From a virus (Duplodnaviria; Heunggongvirae; Uroviricota; Caudoviricetes), in IMG/VR virus record IMGVR_UViG_2531839265_000002: a stretch of DNA of 10,211 nt, one strand, 5' to 3'. Positions 1,950 to 9,501 of the stretch are shown here, piece after piece (positions within the stretch are counted from its first letter, which is position 1; every line of letters begins with the position of its first letter). The notes beneath the pieces were generated by a model, which saw only the letters and a list, made by a program, of their open reading frames with translations, did no database searches and had not been told where the DNA came from. A program made the position numbers and the translations under genes.

Positions 1950-2573
1950 TTACATTTGCTGACCAGGCTGTCCGGTGCTGCCACCACTGTCGCCCCGGTG
2001 ATTGTGACCGTTATAGACAATTCTGATTTGACTCATCGTTCCGTGATAATCAGAAACCTCACCACCGACCATCAGATCCGCCTTAACCACCACCTCAGCA
2101 TTCATGGTTGCTTTACCCTGTACAGTCAGGGTATCTGTGATTTCTACCGGACCGTCCAGGGTTCCCCTGCCGGTAATTTTATAGCTGCCGCCTTCAGCCA
2201 GCGTGATGGACAGGGCATTAGCCTGACGGTCGTAACGGATTTCCGTTCCGGTATCAAACAAAATAACATGTTCGTATTCACTGCCCTCAGGGACAGGAAT
2301 GGCGTCAATATTAGCCCCCGGATACACCCGACCGTTACGCAGATCGCCCGCCTCCGATATCACTGTAACGGCATCTCCGGGAGCCGGGTAATTACTGACC
2401 TGCATGTAGCGCCCGGACTGTACCTGAATCCAGGGCAACGGAGGCGAAAGCACATCCCCGATATCCACCCGAACCATAACCGGGCTACCCGGGATCACCT
2501 CGTCCACCACGCCGCGACGGACCATGTCCGCCACCCTGCGGCGTAACTCTGCCACTTCATCTGCCAGACTCAT
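1950..2573 (-). CDS. V: Baseplate spike/assembly protein, P2 gpV-like
   Basis: The track ORF (1950..2867) is open upstream, but homology to P2 gpV begins at an internal ATG at 2573 (MSLADEVAELRRRVADMVRRG..), giving 207 aa against 211 aa for P2 V. C-terminal motif HNHRGDSGGSTGQP matches P2 V HKHPGDSGGTTGSP. Start overlaps the upstream gene by 17 nt. Confidence 0.8.
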   Translation of the reverse strand: MSLADEVAELRRRVADMVRRGVVDEVIPGSPVMVRVDIGDVLSPPLPWIQVQSGRYMQVSNYPAPGDAVTVISEAGDLRNGRVYPGANIDAIPVPEGSEYEHVILFDTGTEIRYDRQANALSITLAEGGSYKITGRGTLDGPVEITDTLTVQGKATMNAEVVVKADLMVGGEVSDYHGTMSQIRIVYNGHNHRGDSGGSTGQPGQQM

Positions 2574-3120
2574 CACCGGTGCCCTCCGATTTCCAGATAA
2601 GACGATAATCCTGCTCATGTCTCTTGCCGGTTTCCGGTACTTTACCCAGCCAGACTTCCTGTAACGGCGCACCTGCCGGAACCGCAAACGGATCTTCGCC
2701 GACCGGAATGTCCTGTTCAAAAGAGACACGGAAAACGATGTAGTCGTCCAGCAGCCGGTCGAAGGTATCCACCTCAGCATCGATAAAAACCGCCGGATCA
2801 ACGTTATCCAGCCCGAACGTGGCTCCCTCAATCCAGTCAGATAAATCCATCGCCAGACAACGGACAAAAATCTGCGGTTTTGGCACGTTTTCCGTCTTCC
2901 CGGCCCGGTCTGTCACCACAAACAGATCACATTTCAGCGTGACCCGCGTTTGCCCGTCAGCAAACTGAGCCTTGTCCCAGCCCGGTACATCCACAAACAC
3001 AGCAGGCGTCACCAGTTGCGTCACTTTTTCCGGGTACTCATCGGCATCTTCCACCCAGGGAATTTGTTTCAGACTGTCAATCACCGCCTGATGCCAGGCG
3101 CCCATCATCAATGGCTCCAT
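2557..3120 (-). CDS. Hypothetical protein; by position a candidate tail terminator or tail completion protein
   Basis: 187-aa acidic ORF, tightly coupled on both sides (TGATG overlap with the Z-like stop; 17-nt overlap with V). I do not recognise the family. It occupies the slot of lambda gpU or P2 gpR/gpS between the connector genes and the baseplate genes. Confidence 0.5.
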   Translation of the reverse strand: MEPLMMGAWHQAVIDSLKQIPWVEDADEYPEKVTQLVTPAVFVDVPGWDKAQFADGQTRVTLKCDLFVVTDRAGKTENVPKPQIFVRCLAMDLSDWIEGATFGLDNVDPAVFIDAEVDTFDRLLDDYIVFRVSFEQDIPVGEDPFAVPAGAPLQEVWLGKVPETGKRHEQDYRLIWKSEGTGDESGR

Positions 3121-3842
3121 CACTCCAGCCCCTTAAATACCCGGAATTTCAGTTCATGCTCAAAATTTTTCAGGATCAGTGCTTCCGCATCCGGAAAAAC
3201 AAAATCCTCTATACGGTTCAGCATGGCTTCATAAATATCAATTTCCGCTTCACGCACCCTCCGTCGTCCGGATGCCTGTCGGATCAGTATCGTTTTCCTT
3301 TTTGATATACGTCCGTTACGATTTTCCGCTTCGAACTGATTGATAAAGGCATCATCCGTTGACCAGGTGGTGACAGGCAGGGATTCCCCGGCAGGTTTAA
3401 AACGGATCTCCCGTGCCTTCCTCCGGTGGGAAGCTGGTGCAAAACGCCCCCGCTCATCGCGCAACTGATGGCGTTCGCCACGTCGTCCCCCACTGATGCG
3501 TCCGCGCAGATCGCGTACTTTGATGGCGTTCAGACCGAACCATACCTTCGCCTCATCAAACTCATCACCGTTACGACAAATGATAAAATTATGCAGAACA
3601 CGCTTTTTGATCATTTTCTGACTGCGTGGGGCAACCTGTTTTTTAAACTCTGCCATAGACTTCATTCGCAGTGCAGACGCGGCTCTTTTCAGCGCCACGC
3701 CCCAGGCTTTACGGATCTGACTTTTTGACCCACCCAGTTTAGCGATAATTTTCAGCACCTCATCTTCATCAATATCGACGACGAGGTTTCGTGCCAGCCG
3801 TCGCTGCCGGGCACTGCTTCGTTCATGCTCTCTGACTGCCAT
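3120..3842 (-). CDS. Z: Tail completion protein, lambda gpZ-like (arginine-rich)
   Basis: The track ORF starts at TTG 3902; the first ATG is at 3842 (MAVREHERSS..), which I take as the start. Highly basic protein with an Arg-rich central segment; its C-terminal region loosely resembles lambda gpZ, and it follows the FII-like gene as Z does in lambda. Start choice and family are both uncertain. Confidence 0.5.
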   Translation of the reverse strand: MAVREHERSSARQRRLARNLVVDIDEDEVLKIIAKLGGSKSQIRKAWGVALKRAASALRMKSMAEFKKQVAPRSQKMIKKRVLHNFIICRNGDEFDEAKVWFGLNAIKVRDLRGRISGGRRGERHQLRDERGRFAPASHRRKAREIRFKPAGESLPVTTWSTDDAFINQFEAENRNGRISKRKTILIRQASGRRRVREAEIDIYEAMLNRIEDFVFPDAEALILKNFEHELKFRVFKGLE

Positions 3843-3994
3843 AACGTTTACTCGGTCGTTCCGGTGCAGCAGGTGTATTTCTCCCCGGCTCTCCACGCGC
3901 AAGGGTGATGGTAATCACCCCCTGACCCGCAGTGCCTGACTCATCCCAGCCGGGATCGACTACCTGATAGGGTTCGCCGTGGATCATGACCCTG

Positions 3995-4228
3995 TCATAT
4001 TTTTTTCAGACCGGCGGCCCATGTGCTCCGGGTAAATAACACGGGCGCAGTATCACGAATTTCGCCGCTGCCAGTGTTCATCCCGGTGTTATCTGCCGGG
4101 GCATCAAAAACGGCACGGATTCTTCTTTCCGTGCCGCCCGGATATATGCTGATTTCCGTCCCCATCGTATCCAGGATGATGTCATCCGCATCACTCATGG
4201 CCTGATCGAACAGATTATCGAACATCAT
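3995..4228 (-). CDS. FII: Head-tail joining protein, lambda gpFII-like, N-terminal part only (frame broken at an A7 run)
   Basis: MFDNLFDQAMSDADDIILDTMGTEISI..RAVFD..PVLFTRS resembles lambda FII (MADFDNLFDAAIARADETIRGYMGT..IRGVFD..SLFVRT). The in-frame ORF stops after 77 codons just past an A7 run (T7 on plus, 4000..4006). The conserved FII C-terminus (YDRVMIHGEPYQVVD..) continues in the +1 frame down to a stop at 3825..3823. Start taken as ATG 4228 overlapping the FI stop. Confidence 0.7.
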   Translation of the reverse strand: MMFDNLFDQAMSDADDIILDTMGTEISIYPGGTERRIRAVFDAPADNTGMNTGSGEIRDTAPVLFTRSTWAAGLKKI

Positions 4229-4593
4229 CACTCCCGGATTTTTTCTGCCAGACCGTCCGCCAGCAACGCAGGAACTGCGGCTTCATTAACCAGCACAACA
4301 CTGGAGGCCCGGGCAAACATCAACATTTTTCCCGTCACAGCATCACAGGCTGGCATATGCGCCGTTTTCAGCATACGCACCCGGGCGAGTCCCCGCTCAG
4401 AATGCATTCCGTCGCCGGATGCATCGTTGCCCACCTCTTCCTTCCCTGTCTCCTCCCCATCGAATCCGGCGGCCTCCTCTTCCCATTCCGCCAGGCGCTG
4501 CTCAAGATCGGCTTTTGAACCTGAAATATCTGCTTCACGCCCCAGAATAACTGCCAGCGCCTGAAGGCGTTCCGTCATCTGCTCTTTTGTCAT
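4228..4593 (-). CDS. FI: FI-like head assembly/DNA packaging accessory protein
   Basis: ATG at 4593 preceded by GGGAGAG. N-terminus MTKEQMTERLQALAVILGREADISGSKADLEQRLAEWEEE matches lambda FI (MTKDELIARLRSLGEQLNRDVSLTGTKEELALRVAELKEEL), followed by an acidic linker. In the raw sequence this ORF is read through from the frameshifted E gene. Confidence 0.75.
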   Translation of the reverse strand: MTKEQMTERLQALAVILGREADISGSKADLEQRLAEWEEEAAGFDGEETGKEEVGNDASGDGMHSERGLARVRMLKTAHMPACDAVTGKMLMFARASSVVLVNEAAVPALLADGLAEKIRE

Positions 4594-4611
4594 CAAATCT
4601 CTCCCGTGCGC

Positions 4612-4640
4612 TAAAGAAAAAGGCGGGAATATCCCGCCCC
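4612..4640 (-). terminator. Intrinsic-terminator-like hairpin plus U-tract just downstream of the major capsid gene
   Basis: On the transcribed strand: GGCGGGA-UAU-UCCCGCC (perfect 7-bp GC-rich stem) followed by UUUUUCUUU. It lies between the homology-defined E stop (4646..4644) and the FI start (4593). Confidence 0.5.
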
Positions 4641-4643
4641 GTC

Positions 4644-5673
4644 TTATTTCACCTGAACCACCACAAACGCATCCGGATCCGGCAGCACCATCAACGGCGC
4701 AGACTGCGTCATGGTATATTCGCAACCAGGATCCCCCCACTTCCTCCCAGTGTTTCGGATAACGAATCGCAGAGGTGATCCCTTCACTCAGTGCCTGATT
4801 ATCCTGAATGGCACCATAACAACGGACGCCTTCCGCCTGAGTGTTCCCCAGAATCAGTGTACCTTCCGGCAGATAACGCTGTTCATCCCCGTTTTCGTCA
4901 ACATACGTTGTCTTCGCCACCACAATTGCCAGATCGCCGTAATAACCTTTAAAGGAAACCACGGAGCCCAGGTCTTTCAGTGCCGTTTCCAGCTCAGATT
5001 TGGAGCCACGGCGGGTATCCAGTTTTTCACGGAACAGTTTAAAACCGTTCAGCATACGCCAGACCGTGCCGTCCATAATCGCGATATTGATGGTGCCGGA
5101 AGCGAAATCGCAGTACGCATCCAGATCATGCGTCGGATCGAAGGTGTCAGCATTCTGCTGTGACCATTCGCGTCCGCCAGCCTGCGTAATGTTATTGGCG
5201 GCAGAACGCCCAAAATCCACTTCCACCGTCTCAAACTGCTCGCCGCTCATGGTGTATTTACCCTGCAGAACGGCACTGACCGCCTGCATTTCTTCCACCT
5301 GCACAATCGCCTGCTCTTCCTGTTTCAGGTTGTCTGTCAGAATACGCAGACGGCGGTAAGCCGGGTCATTAAGGCGGGCCGGATCCTCTCCCGGAAGACG
5401 TTCCACTGCCTGCTGATAATCAAAGCGGTGTTTTGGTTTTACATAACCGGGACGTAACACGCGGGTTTCACCACCACGGCTGCGCAGCACTTTGCCTGAC
5501 ACCACCGGAGACACATACGCCGCGACCGGTGTTTTGCCGGTAATTTTATCCAGCATGACTTCCTGAGTATGGAAAGTGATCGTGCGACGAAAGAACAGCT
5601 CCAGAAACAGCGCACGAAATTTCACTTTCTGCTCGGTGTACCCGAGTAACTGACGCGTGGTAAATAACCCCAT
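4644..5673 (-). CDS. E: Major capsid protein, lambda gpE-like (frame broken by one extra base in a G6 run near the 3' end)
   Basis: ATG at 5673 with AAGGA Shine-Dalgarno. Strong similarity to lambda gpE across the protein (MGLFTTRQLLGYTEQKVKFRALFLELFF.. against MSMYTTAQLLAANEQKFKFDPLFLRLFF..; KPKH, AYRR, DTRRGS, LGNTQA motifs). After ..YPKHWEEVG the gpE-like C-terminus (DPGCEYTMTQSAPLMVLPDPDAFVVVQVK) is in the +1 frame and ends at TAA 4646..4644. As sequenced the ORF instead runs on to 4228, fused to FI. Confidence 0.85.
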
Positions 5674-6077: not shown

Positions 6078-6115
6078 TTTTCAGCCTCCTGATTTATCTG
6101 AATTCCGGATATCGC

Positions 6116-6826
6116 TTACGGCATACTCATCAGCAGGTCTTCCTCCCCGCGCCCGGCAGTTCCGCCACCGGAAACCGCACTGGCAGCATGCTGTGCCATA
6201 AAGCGATCAAAAAGTGTTTCCTGTGACGGTTGCGATGCCGCCGGCGCGGCTGCCAGTAGCGTTTTCGCCTGCGCCACCGTCATTCCCGGTTGTTCTGTCA
6301 GTGCCTGTGCAAGTTGCTCGCGCCCTTTTGCCTCCGGCAGCGCCATAATCTGATCGCCGACACTTGCAGAACCAGCAACCGGTGCCGCCGCCAGTAACGT
6401 TTTGGCCTGGTCAACGGTCATTCCCGGCTGTTCAGCCAGCGCCTGCGCGAGTTGTTCACGCCCTTTTGCTTCCGGTAACGCCATAATCTGATCGCCTGTG
6501 CCTGCAGCACCGGCAGCAGGGGCTGCCGCCAGAAACGCTTTCGCCTGCTTCACCGTCATCCCCGGCTGACCTGCCAGCATCTGTGCCAGTTGCTCACGCC
6601 CCTTTGCTTCCGGCAGCCCCATAATCTGATCACCTGTATTTGCCACACTGGCAGCAGGCACAGCAGCCAGGAACGCTTTCGCCTGCTCTACCGTCATTCC
6701 AGGCTGACCTGCCAGCATTTGCGCCAGTTGCTCGCGCCCTTTCGCCTCCTGACAATTCAGGATCCCCATCACGCGCTGATTTTCCTGGGCCACCGCTTCA
6801 GCAACGGTGAGATTTTTAACAGTCAT
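6116..6826 (-). CDS. nu3: Nu3-like scaffolding protein, nested in-frame within the 3' part of the C-like gene
   Basis: Internal ATG at 6826..6824 preceded at ideal spacing by AAGGAG (transcribed strand CGAAGGAGAATGCAATG). Translation MTVKNLTVAEAVAQENQRVMGILNCQEAKGRE.. parallels the lambda Nu3 region (..AAVAAENSRIMGILNCEEAHGRE..). In lambda, Nu3 is an in-frame internal initiation product of the C reading frame. Confidence 0.55.
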   Translation of the reverse strand: MTVKNLTVAEAVAQENQRVMGILNCQEAKGREQLAQMLAGQPGMTVEQAKAFLAAVPAASVANTGDQIMGLPEAKGREQLAQMLAGQPGMTVKQAKAFLAAAPAAGAAGTGDQIMALPEAKGREQLAQALAEQPGMTVDQAKTLLAAAPVAGSASVGDQIMALPEAKGREQLAQALTEQPGMTVAQAKTLLAAAPAASQPSQETLFDRFMAQHAASAVSGGGTAGRGEEDLLMSMP

Positions 6827-7732
6827 TGCATTCTCCTTCGTAACAGAGTCATTCAGTGCAGAAACCATCACTTCAACGGCATCTGCAGCATTAATCAGTT
6901 GATCAGCCAGGCCTGCATCAATGCCTGCCTGACCGTCATAAACGGCAGCCTCGGTATTCATCACCGCCTCTGAACTCAGCCCCGTATAAAGCGCCACCTT
7001 ATCGGCAAACATCCGGCGGGCCTCATCAATACGGCGCTGAAAATCTGCACGCACACCTGCCGGCAATGCCTGAATACTGTTGCCGTCAACCTTGTGCTGC
7101 CCGGAGTAAATCAGCGTGATGTCCACCCCTTCCTGTGCCAGTTGTTTCTCATAACTGGTGTGCGCCATCATCACGCCAATCGAACCAATTTTTGCCGTCT
7201 GCGTGACCAGCCGACGGGTACAGGCTGCCGCCAGCAACATAGCGGCTGAACAGGCCATGTCATTACACAGCGCCCACACGGGCTTCTGTTCCCGCAGACG
7301 GTAAATCATGTCAGCACAGTCAAACGCCCCGGCAGCCTGACCGCCCGGGCTGTCGATATCCAGCAAAATGCCGCGCACATCCGGATCATTCACCGCCATC
7401 TGAAGACGAGCAGTCAGACCGTCATAGCCTGTCATGCCGGAGTAAGGCCGCAGGGTACCCAGTTTATGCACCAGCGTGCCGCTCACCGGCAGAATGGCAA
7501 TGCCATTCTTCACCTGGTAACTCTTTGCCGGACGCTGACCGCCCGCCATATAGTCAGTCACCGCCAGTTGCATACCATCAGCATCAAGCTGAACAGCCTG
7601 CTGAGGAACGGCAAGGCTGCCGGCCCCTATCTCTTTACCCAGCGCGCAAAAGAAAACCCGCGCATAGGCGGGTTCCAGTAAAAGCGGCTCATTAAATGCC
7701 ATGGCGGCAATATGCGATAAATTACGACGCAT
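6116..7732 (-). CDS. C: Capsid assembly protease, lambda gpC-like (S49/SppA-type peptidase) with in-frame scaffold region
   Basis: The track ORF is open to 7864, but homology to lambda C begins at ATG 7732 (MRRNLSHIAAMAFNEPLLLEPAYARVFFCAL against ..LRNLPHIASMAFNEPLMLEPAYARVFFCAL). Further matches: PYSGMTGY, AGAFDCAD, KPVWAL, TGSIGVMMAH, ITLIYSG.HKVDGN, TEAAVY.GQ..IDAGLAD. Overlaps the portal gene 3' end by 11 nt. About 100 aa longer than lambda C because of the C-terminal tandem repeats. Confidence 0.85.
   Translation of the reverse strand: MRRNLSHIAAMAFNEPLLLEPAYARVFFCALGKEIGAGSLAVPQQAVQLDADGMQLAVTDYMAGGQRPAKSYQVKNGIAILPVSGTLVHKLGTLRPYSGMTGYDGLTARLQMAVNDPDVRGILLDIDSPGGQAAGAFDCADMIYRLREQKPVWALCNDMACSAAMLLAAACTRRLVTQTAKIGSIGVMMAHTSYEKQLAQEGVDITLIYSGQHKVDGNSIQALPAGVRADFQRRIDEARRMFADKVALYTGLSSEAVMNTEAAVYDGQAGIDAGLADQLINAADAVEVMVSALNDSVTKENAMTVKNLTVAEAVAQENQRVMGILNCQEAKGREQLAQMLAGQPGMTVEQAKAFLAAVPAASVANTGDQIMGLPEAKGREQLAQMLAGQPGMTVKQAKAFLAAAPAAGAAGTGDQIMALPEAKGREQLAQALAEQPGMTVDQAKTLLAAAPVAGSASVGDQIMALPEAKGREQLAQALTEQPGMTVAQAKTLLAAAPAASQPSQETLFDRFMAQHAASAVSGGGTAGRGEEDLLMSMP
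6241..6769. repeat. Four tandem copies of a 138-bp (46-codon) unit, diverged, inside the C/Nu3 coding region
   Basis: Unit start codons (ATG on minus) recur at 6769, 6622 (147 bp, first unit 3 codons longer), 6484 and 6346 (138 bp spacing). The plus-strand motif ccataatctgatc(g/a)cc recurs at 6343, 6481 and 6619. Encoded units read M(A/G)LPEAKGREQLAQ(A/M)LA(E/G)QPGMTV.QAK..LAAAP......GDQI. Copies are clearly related but diverged at DNA level. Confidence 0.8.
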
Positions 7733-9293
7733 CGCCTTTTTCTCCCGTTGTCTGTCGGATCTGCTGCTGAAACGTGTCCTTAATCCAGATGGGGCGGGGA
7801 AGACCCGCTGCCTGTCGCTCCTGGCTTTCACGCAGTTGCTGACGGAAAATCTCCTGATAGTCATCGCCCATCAGAGCCAGCTCTTTCTCGTACGTGCTTA
7901 AACCACCTTCAATACGCATCACCGCTTCCTGCACTTCCTTAAGGCCATCAATCGCCATGCGACCGGCACCAATCCACTCGGCACGACACCATCCGGAACG
8001 GGCCTCCCAGAATGAAAAACGGGATTTCGGCGGGCGGATCACACCGCGAATAAGAGCTTCCTCCAGCCAGCAGGCAAACATCTGTGATGCCAGCCGGCTG
8101 GCCACAAATTTTCGTTTGCCCATAAAATACCGCCACGACTCATTGGCGGATGCCCTGGCACTGGAATAACTGACCTGTGAATAATCACGGGAAAGCTGTT
8201 CATAGGACACCCCCAGTCCGGCAGCGATGTAACGTAACAGCGCCTTTTCCAGTTCAGAGAAACCATTATCTGCATTCTGCGCTGTCTGCAGATTCAGTGA
8301 ATCCCCCGGATAAAGATGCGGAATACGGACCCCACCCAGCTTTACCGTATTGGTGGCGTAATAACGCGCGTAGCCTTTCATGATGGTGTTCAGGGGATTT
8401 TTACCGCCATCTCCCACCCCGGCGATATATTCAAATGCTTTTTCCGAATCCAGCGTGGATTCAATCGTCGCGGCATACATCGCCCGCACCACCGCCGACT
8501 GCAGTTGCGTGGCCTGCAGTGTGTCGAGCATCTTGAGACGCTCCATGACAGAATAAAACTGGTTGGCCCCGCGCGTCTGCCCGTCCTCCTGCGGCTGAAA
8601 CACATGGATCATTCCCGGTCGCCCGGAGGGCAGCGTCGCCGCAATCCGCGTCCAGTTGCTGACACCGTAACCGGGCCAGTCATCTTCCTGAACATGGTAG
8701 GCCAGTGCTTTTCCGTACCGGTTGATCTCCACCCCGGCACGCATAAAACGATCGCCGGTACCATAACCGGGTGTACTGACACGTTTCGGGCTGATGGTCT
8801 TGAATTTCGTCCGGAATAATGACGTGGATTCCGTATCCCATACGGGCTGGACAAAAATTTCACCGTTAAACGTATGAACGCCCACCCCTTCACGAATAAA
8901 TTCGGTAAACGAGCGACGCCCCTCCACATCCATCGAACCAAACACAGGATCGCAATATTCCATCCACGCCGCCTCCACATCTTCAATAAAGGCATGCGAA
9001 TCAGCTTCCGACATCCCCAGCCAGCGCCAGTTGGGCCGGTAGCTCAGGCGAAACATGTGCCCGACGATATGGTCTTTATGAATTTCCACTGCATTTGCGG
9101 CAATACCGTTGTTACGGACCAGATCATCCGCACGGGCGTTACCCAGCTGAATGGAAGGTAAGAGCGCCACGTCGGCACTTTCCGGTGCAGGCAACCATTC
9201 CGCAAGCTGCCCGCCAAATCCGGTACCCCCTCCGGAATATCCCATACTCTGCCGCAATGGCTGCCCGTGAAGATCCACCAGTTCCCTGTTCAC
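7722..9293 (-). CDS. B: Portal protein, lambda gpB-like
   Basis: 523 aa against 533 aa for lambda B. Similarity throughout (GGGTGFGGQ, LLP..GNARADDLVRNNG.AANA, FNGE.FVQ..WDT, DGQTRGAN.FYSVME.LKMLDTLQ.TQLQSA, GLGVSYEQLSR.Y.Q.SYS.ARASANESW, RMAIDGLKEVQEAVM). Start is GTG at 9293 overlapping the gpW stop (GTGA). Confidence 0.9.
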   Translation of the reverse strand: MNRELVDLHGQPLRQSMGYSGGGTGFGGQLAEWLPAPESADVALLPSIQLGNARADDLVRNNGIAANAVEIHKDHIVGHMFRLSYRPNWRWLGMSEADSHAFIEDVEAAWMEYCDPVFGSMDVEGRRSFTEFIREGVGVHTFNGEIFVQPVWDTESTSLFRTKFKTISPKRVSTPGYGTGDRFMRAGVEINRYGKALAYHVQEDDWPGYGVSNWTRIAATLPSGRPGMIHVFQPQEDGQTRGANQFYSVMERLKMLDTLQATQLQSAVVRAMYAATIESTLDSEKAFEYIAGVGDGGKNPLNTIMKGYARYYATNTVKLGGVRIPHLYPGDSLNLQTAQNADNGFSELEKALLRYIAAGLGVSYEQLSRDYSQVSYSSARASANESWRYFMGKRKFVASRLASQMFACWLEEALIRGVIRPPKSRFSFWEARSGWCRAEWIGAGRMAIDGLKEVQEAVMRIEGGLSTYEKELALMGDDYQEIFRQQLRESQERQAAGLPRPIWIKDTFQQQIRQTTGEKGDAS

Positions 9294-9499: not shown

Positions 9500-9501
9500 T
9501 T

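Follow-up and report, generated by a model that had tools for sequence, protein, structure and literature searches.

The stretch of DNA analyzed here (hereafter, the window) is 10,211 nt long and, when reverse-complemented, corresponds exactly to the start of the locus on draft scaffold JH594577.1 from Escherichia coli 4_1_47FAA (assembly GCA_000243195.1). The window stops at a scaffold gap of 69 Ns (positions 10212..10280 of L032, the longer stretch of JH594577.1 of 20,124 nt that comprises the window and the next ~9.8 kb), and its source is therefore a contig within a draft scaffold. The head module follows the lambda-type order (the nuclease domain of the large terminase gpA, gpW, portal, S49 protease, decoration protein D, major capsid protein E, FI, and FII), and on the 3' side of FII, a tail completion/Neck1 gene and another gene without an assigned function precede the P2-type baseplate genes V, W/gp25, J, and I. 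By these gene assignments, the prophage combines a lambda-type head module with a P2-type contractile tail. The two genes between FII and baseplate gene V encode the 240-aa tail completion/Neck1 protein (3120..3842, minus strand; phrog_27) and a 183-aa protein without an assigned function (2557..3108; phrog_1072). The former gene begins inside the FII-like gene, with a 20-nt overlap at the true 3' end of the latter, in the window as in its relatives. Two genes in the mechanically produced list of open reading frames (ORFs) are overlong when compared with the starts called in relatives or in existing annotations. The protease ORF (6116..7864; affected segment 7722..7864) begins upstream of the start in relatives, which is the equivalent of 7732 (538 aa), and for the portal (affected segment 9246..9293) the start differs among annotations (GTG at 9293, giving 523 aa, or 9245, giving 507 aa). 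In the relatives L030 and L031, a full P2-type tail set can be seen (V, W/gp25, J, I, fibre, sheath, tube, TAC_7, gpU, X, and D).

The FII-like gene lies on the minus strand in two parts that are separated by a frame break. The N-terminal part (3995..4228) encodes 77 aa from an ATG at 4228, the equivalent of the start used by RefSeq in relatives, and ends at a UGA at 3995..3997. The deposited FII-like ORF (4228..3995) closes with CUG AAA AAA AUA UGA, and the translation of the ORF at 3995..4231 on the minus strand ends in ...TRSTWAAGLKKI*. Read along the minus strand, a GGT precedes the CTG at 4009..4007, which is followed by a run of seven As (A7; 4006..4000), an ATA at 4000..3998, and the TGA at 3997..3995. 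The C-terminal part (3823..3999, minus strand) is in the +1 frame, where translation from 3999 reads YDRVMIHGEPYQVVD... and continues for 58 codons to a stop at 3825..3823; in all relatives this part is contiguous with the N-terminal part. The break is the extra A of the A7 homopolymer (4000..4006, minus strand), which appears as a single-base gap in comparison with every relative. The preliminary description, according to which the FII-like frame ends CUG AAA AAA AUA UGA and the C-terminal half continues in the +1 frame to 3825..3823, is correct in its coordinates and in its account of the sequence. In the -1 frame the run leads to KKNMTGS* and not to the FII C-terminus, and -1 frameshifting on the run was rejected for this reason.

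When one A is dropped, the two halves join as a 134-aa protein that can be assigned with three resources. This repaired protein matches the Pfam family Phage_attach (PF05354) with an E-value of 1.6e-12 and a score of 48.3 bits at a threshold of 26 (residues 7-98 aligned to positions 4-92 of the 99-position profile), the structure of lambda gpFII (PDB 1K0H) with an E-value of 1e-7 (residues 3-99 on 4-100 of 117), and phrog_82 'head closure Hc1' with an E-value of 2e-29 (residues 2-120). The Pfam, PDB, and PHROG matches all cross the junction at residues 77/78, and the N-terminal fragment alone gives only a 'weak' Pfam match. Membership in the lambda FII type is indicated both by the match above the curated threshold across most of the domain and by the position of the gene at the end of the lambda-type head cluster, directly after FI, in the window and in all relatives. 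Because the break at residues 77/78 sits inside one known domain, the two FII-like halves are a single gene broken mid-domain. The frame break is real in the deposited sequence and does not stem from a fortuitous arrangement of ORFs, given that the two halves are parts of a single known protein.

A second break occurs in the neighboring gene for the major capsid protein E, where a G6 homopolymer on the minus strand (4733..4738) carries one G too many. The extra G shifts the last ~31 codons of E and joins E in frame to FI. A 481-aa ORF (4228..5673, minus strand) that contains both Phage_cap_E (residues 5-318) and Packaging_FI (residues 362-476) thus results from the difference between G6 and G5, E and FI being separate proteins of 342 and 121 aa in relatives. 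The fusion is on record once, as EHP62742.1 'major head protein [Escherichia coli 4_1_47FAA]', and the FII N-terminal fragment was deposited as the 76-aa EHP62741.1 'hypothetical protein HMPREF0986_05241', which is called from the next ATG. For this reason, exact look-ups with 77-aa and 78-aa versions of the truncated product returned no match, and the source record was reached through the 481-aa ORF. The second single-base break in a head gene that had been pointed out from the sequence of the window is likewise present in the deposited sequence, and the breaks in E and FII are attributable to private homopolymer changes of the same kind (G6 and A7).

The prophage is common in E. coli, with 75-78 of 5,426 complete genomes carrying it. 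The question of whether homologues contain A6 or A7, which the preliminary description had proposed as a check, is answered by a survey of other loci from complete genomes, IMG/VR contigs, metagenome contigs, and NCBI, ENA, and Logan assemblies (the source locus being left out): A6 and one continuous gene for a protein of 133-134 aa are found in 43 of 43. This result supports the earlier suggestion that a one-base insertion, arising as a sequencing artefact or through prophage decay, is the simpler explanation of the break. The G run in E is G5 in each of the 30 other loci that carry the flanking motif. A 131-nt query around the A run aligns to 130 nt in all 60 of the listed rows from 75 matching complete E. 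coli genomes, and in these listed rows the feature underlying the 130-nt match is annotated as 'head-tail joining protein'. An uninterrupted 405-nt gene is annotated by RefSeq in the three loci checked. A pattern scan permitting A6, A7, or A8 returned 17 IMG/VR and 7 metagenome matches, all of them A6; the same scan of a collection with one genome per species gave no match, nor did a megablast search of the region against a phage collection. At the protein level, continuity extends to every full-length homologue retrieved, with identities as low as 59% and Salmonella among the sources; all are 133-134 aa long, and the motif at the junction, G(L/I/M)(K/A)K(Y/R/H)DRV, is retained. The 90% identity cluster has 520 members, and among the members read, the 4_1_47FAA entry alone is truncated at the A run. 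A search with the D protein of the window added 10 intact loci; this protein offers no strain-specific handle, because it is common (477 blocks) and the private substitution in D is synonymous.

Comparison with the closest relatives allows changes that are private to this scaffold to be separated from ordinary variation. Over the length of the window, five relatives (L030, L031, L033, L034, and L035, taken from ENA, NCBI, and Logan) share 99.95-99.96% identity with it, and only two indels set the window apart from them, namely one additional G at 4738 and one additional A at 4006. Beyond the 69-N gap, the next ~9.8 kb of L032 differ from L030 and L031 by four more one-base changes in A runs (A5 versus A6, A7 versus A8, and A7 versus A6 twice; L032 11613, 13683, 14734, and 15660), which are again private to the scaffold. 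Two tail ORFs of L032 differ accordingly from those of the relatives: the tube ORF has 128 aa instead of 172 aa, and in place of one tape-measure ORF of 550 aa there are two, of 299 aa and 232 aa. The observation that both breaks in the window consist of one extra homopolymer base in a head gene is thus borne out, and it extends to four similar changes outside the window on the same scaffold. In total, ~20 kb of the scaffold contain six private homopolymer indels (four overcalls and two undercalls) versus two private substitutions (window 5865, which is the one inside the window, and L032 13008). Relative to L031, discordance is seen at 4 of 20 A/T runs of 6 nt, at the single A/T run of 8 nt, and at 1 of 16 G/C runs of 5 nt, and at none of 226 runs of 4 nt or 59 A/T runs of 5 nt; none of the A/T runs of 7 nt is discordant either, which speaks against miscalling, although the reference contains only six of these. 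One-base changes aside, gene order and ORF lengths over the 20 kb are those of the intact relatives, and all five substitutions between L032 and L031 are transitions. A comparison with distant relatives only gives a misleading figure of ~25 private substitutions, of which the near-identical relatives leave one in the window.

Differences in run length also occur elsewhere among these prophages. In comparison with the 98%-identical L002, the window has one-base intergenic differences at 6082 (A5 versus A6 upstream of the D start) and at 9501 (one G fewer in the gap that separates the end of the terminase gene from the start of gpW), both of which are common to the near-identical relatives and are therefore ordinary polymorphisms, not errors. 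E. coli ETEC4073 (L003 6169) has a private change from A6 to A7 near the end of FI that fuses FI and FII, annotated as a 256-aa 'head-tail joining protein', and E. coli A36 has two private changes from G5 to G6 in the portal gene (L004 2106 and 2200), which RefSeq labels 'frameshifted'. These private changes in L003 and L004 could be either errors or real decay. Another frameshifted FII variant, P0008 from a Logan assembly, has its break at a different site.

The available evidence indicates, with a probability of roughly 80%, that A7 is a one-base homopolymer miscall (an overcall of A6) in the draft assembly of E. coli 4_1_47FAA. A sequencing error is the most likely source of the extra A because the base is found in one draft assembly only and is accompanied there by five more one-base run-length changes within 20 kb. 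The change affects a single base of a homopolymer, is private to one assembly, and has intact homologues; additionally, changes of length exceed substitutions, go in both directions, and are confined to the long runs. One-base changes of long runs in both directions, in a draft with hardly any private substitutions, are the signature of homopolymer miscalling, which suggests that the cause is a base-calling or consensus error of a homopolymer-sensitive platform as opposed to a mutation. Literature searches by assembly accession, scaffold accession, and strain name turned up no useful information on how 4_1_47FAA was sequenced; the Broad Human Microbiome Project (HMP) reference drafts of that period were presumably often 454/Newbler assemblies. 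On the miscall reading, the organism would most likely carry an uninterrupted 134-aa head-tail joining/head closure gene of the lambda FII type, and this gene would be translated conventionally, without recoding. The finding is most likely an ordinary one, namely a gene split at a homopolymer and not a programmed frameshift.

Alternatively, A7 may be a genuine recent one-base insertion that arose by replication slippage in 4_1_47FAA, in which case the FII-like gene is a pseudogene and the prophage has been inactivated by several homopolymer frameshifts, possibly in a lineage deficient in mismatch repair. Structural genes of a prophage are not under selection in the lysogen, and homopolymers are mutational hot spots; since replication slippage likewise favors long homopolymers, the confinement of the changes to long runs is also compatible with mutation. 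The exclusive presence of transitions among the substitutions between L032 and L031 fits the spectrum of a mismatch-repair-deficient strain, although it fits ordinary polymorphism as well, and assemblies of related prophages in complete genomes also contain private homopolymer frameshifts, one of them labeled 'frameshifted' by RefSeq. However, six private indels to two private substitutions in 20 kb is far from the ratios expected of E. coli, where substitutions reportedly outnumber indels about tenfold in mutation accumulation experiments and where the ratio in mutators is also far from 6:2. The 20 kb are free of the other marks of a decaying prophage, with no deletions, insertion sequences, rearrangements of gene order, or extra substitutions, and the allele occurs in none of the other genomes compared, which would require an extremely young lineage that has nevertheless been struck six times. 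A genuine insertion is consequently considered unlikely. If it were genuine, full-length FII would be produced only through unprogrammed leakiness, by erroneous +1 slippage of tRNA-Lys on the A run or by slippage of RNA polymerase. In E. coli, test cases that need -1 slippage have shown non-programmed suppression of frameshifts at levels of 1-10% (PMC10861913). It is very improbable that A7 is real and, in addition, that a little full-length FII arises through errors, either because Lys-tRNA slips by +1 on the A run ahead of the rare AUA or because RNA polymerase slips, so that a 'problem indel' in a phage head-completion gene is partly compensated in decoding.

The remaining alternatives give the break a function. 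The preliminary description had noted that a slippery lysine run followed by a rare codon and a stop is a possible site of +1 recoding. Under such a programmed +1 frameshift, the Lys-tRNA on the second AAA would occupy the P site while the rare AUA or the UGA awaited decoding in the A site, re-pair on A5-A7, and resume with UAU GAC, producing full-length FII in a set ratio to an 8.5-kDa product. In favor of this, the shift would give exactly the protein of the A6 allele (...LKKYDRV...), the tRNA would move from AAA to AAA without any mismatch, and AUA is a rare codon, at 3.6 per 1000 in the genes of the window. Structural genes of a phage are also known to use +1 frameshifting, as Listeria phage PSA does for its capsid and tail shaft proteins (PMC5009743). 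Against this, re-pairing of this kind holds for any A7 run, and the slow A-site codon AUA, with the UGA after it, is the displaced UAU GA(C): an A inserted into AAA AAA UAU GAC automatically gives AAA AAA AUA UGA C, and the AUA UGA context is therefore a by-product of the insertion and not an independent feature. The two-frame arrangement and its shift site are not conserved: none of the 43 other loci has them, nor does any of the 60 listed rows from 75 matching complete genomes, and the full-length homologues, with identities as low as 59%, each consist of a single ORF of 133-134 aa. Neither type of cis stimulator was found. The 40 nt upstream contain no Shine-Dalgarno-like element near the site, the sole such tetramer being a GGAG at -23, and the 85 nt downstream fold worse than shuffled sequences (minimum free energy of -24 kcal/mol versus a shuffle mean of -27.6; z = +1.14). 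The five other homopolymer changes in the scaffold lack this context and are equally private. As the homologues have A6, +1 recoding is not supported, and a programmed shift is regarded as extremely improbable. Programmed transcriptional slippage or phase variation at the A run, with mixed A6 and A7 in mRNA or DNA, is a prospect that can be given almost no weight. The break does lie in an A run, where RNA and DNA polymerases slip, but seven As fall below the lengths at which such behavior is usual. Programmed slippage typically takes place in runs of eight or more (PMC3711429), and selection against slippage-prone runs becomes evident at nine nucleotides in a large share of bacterial genomes (PMC1088944). 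A phase-variable or slippage site would also be expected to vary in length or to conserve its break, and the run is an invariant A6 in 43 of 43 other loci, the opposite of a contingency locus.

The value of these results is mainly corrective, in that two mis-predicted proteins are flagged in the deposited annotation. EHP62741.1 and EHP62742.1 are probably products of one-base homopolymer errors, and they are unfit as evidence for recoding or for a fusion of the capsid protein with FI. If A7 were confirmed, the gene would still be an ordinary prophage pseudogene, and some leaky full-length product would then be expected as error-level decoding of that pseudogene and not as the output of a programmed device. 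For scans that search for recoding sites of this kind, a cheap test is available in the comparison of near-identical relatives and in the count of private homopolymer indels versus private substitutions per contig.

The comparison with known systems places the different aspects of the locus in context. The FII-like gene resembles lambda gpFII, PF05354, and PHROG 82, all of which the repaired protein matches over the break, and it follows FI directly as in the lambda-type order. It differs from lambda FII in possessing a C-terminal tail of ~17 residues that is absent from the lambda protein, and the genes downstream are also unlike those of lambda, which has the siphovirus tail genes Z-U-V where the window has the tail completion/Neck1 gene and the P2-type contractile-tail baseplate genes (V, W/gp25, J, and I). 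The site shares with the +1 frameshift of prfB (RF2) a P-site codon that is able to re-pair in the +1 frame and a UGA close behind, but it is without a Shine-Dalgarno stimulator at the required spacing, its stop is one codon further away, its arrangement is not conserved, and its context follows trivially from the insertion. As in Listeria phage PSA, structural genes of a phage are involved and a +1 shift is needed. In PSA, the shift takes place at a proline codon beside a pseudoknot or a stop and yields a C-terminally extended second functional product (PMC5009743), whereas the FII-like site has no downstream structure or second functional product, and a shift there would merely repair a private indel. 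Low-level frameshifting is known to compensate for indels in homopolymer runs (e.g., the G run of herpesvirus thymidine kinase; PMC5009743), and a real A7 would be buffered in the manner of the 'savior' and 'problem' indels described in the same work, with infrequent slippage on the run supplying some full-length protein; unlike those cases, nothing here suggests selection for the indel, and five other frameshifts are present in the same copy of the prophage. Drafts from homopolymer-sensitive platforms that carry run-length errors provide another parallel, since over- and undercalls occur together in one scaffold and indels exceed private substitutions, although six errors within 20 kb would be many even for a draft made by pyrosequencing, which counts against the miscall reading. 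The locus likewise resembles the 'singleton' frameshifted genes of Antonov et al. (2013; PMC3711429), in which a one-base difference in a run of at least 5 nt is found in one assembly only and the homologues are continuous.
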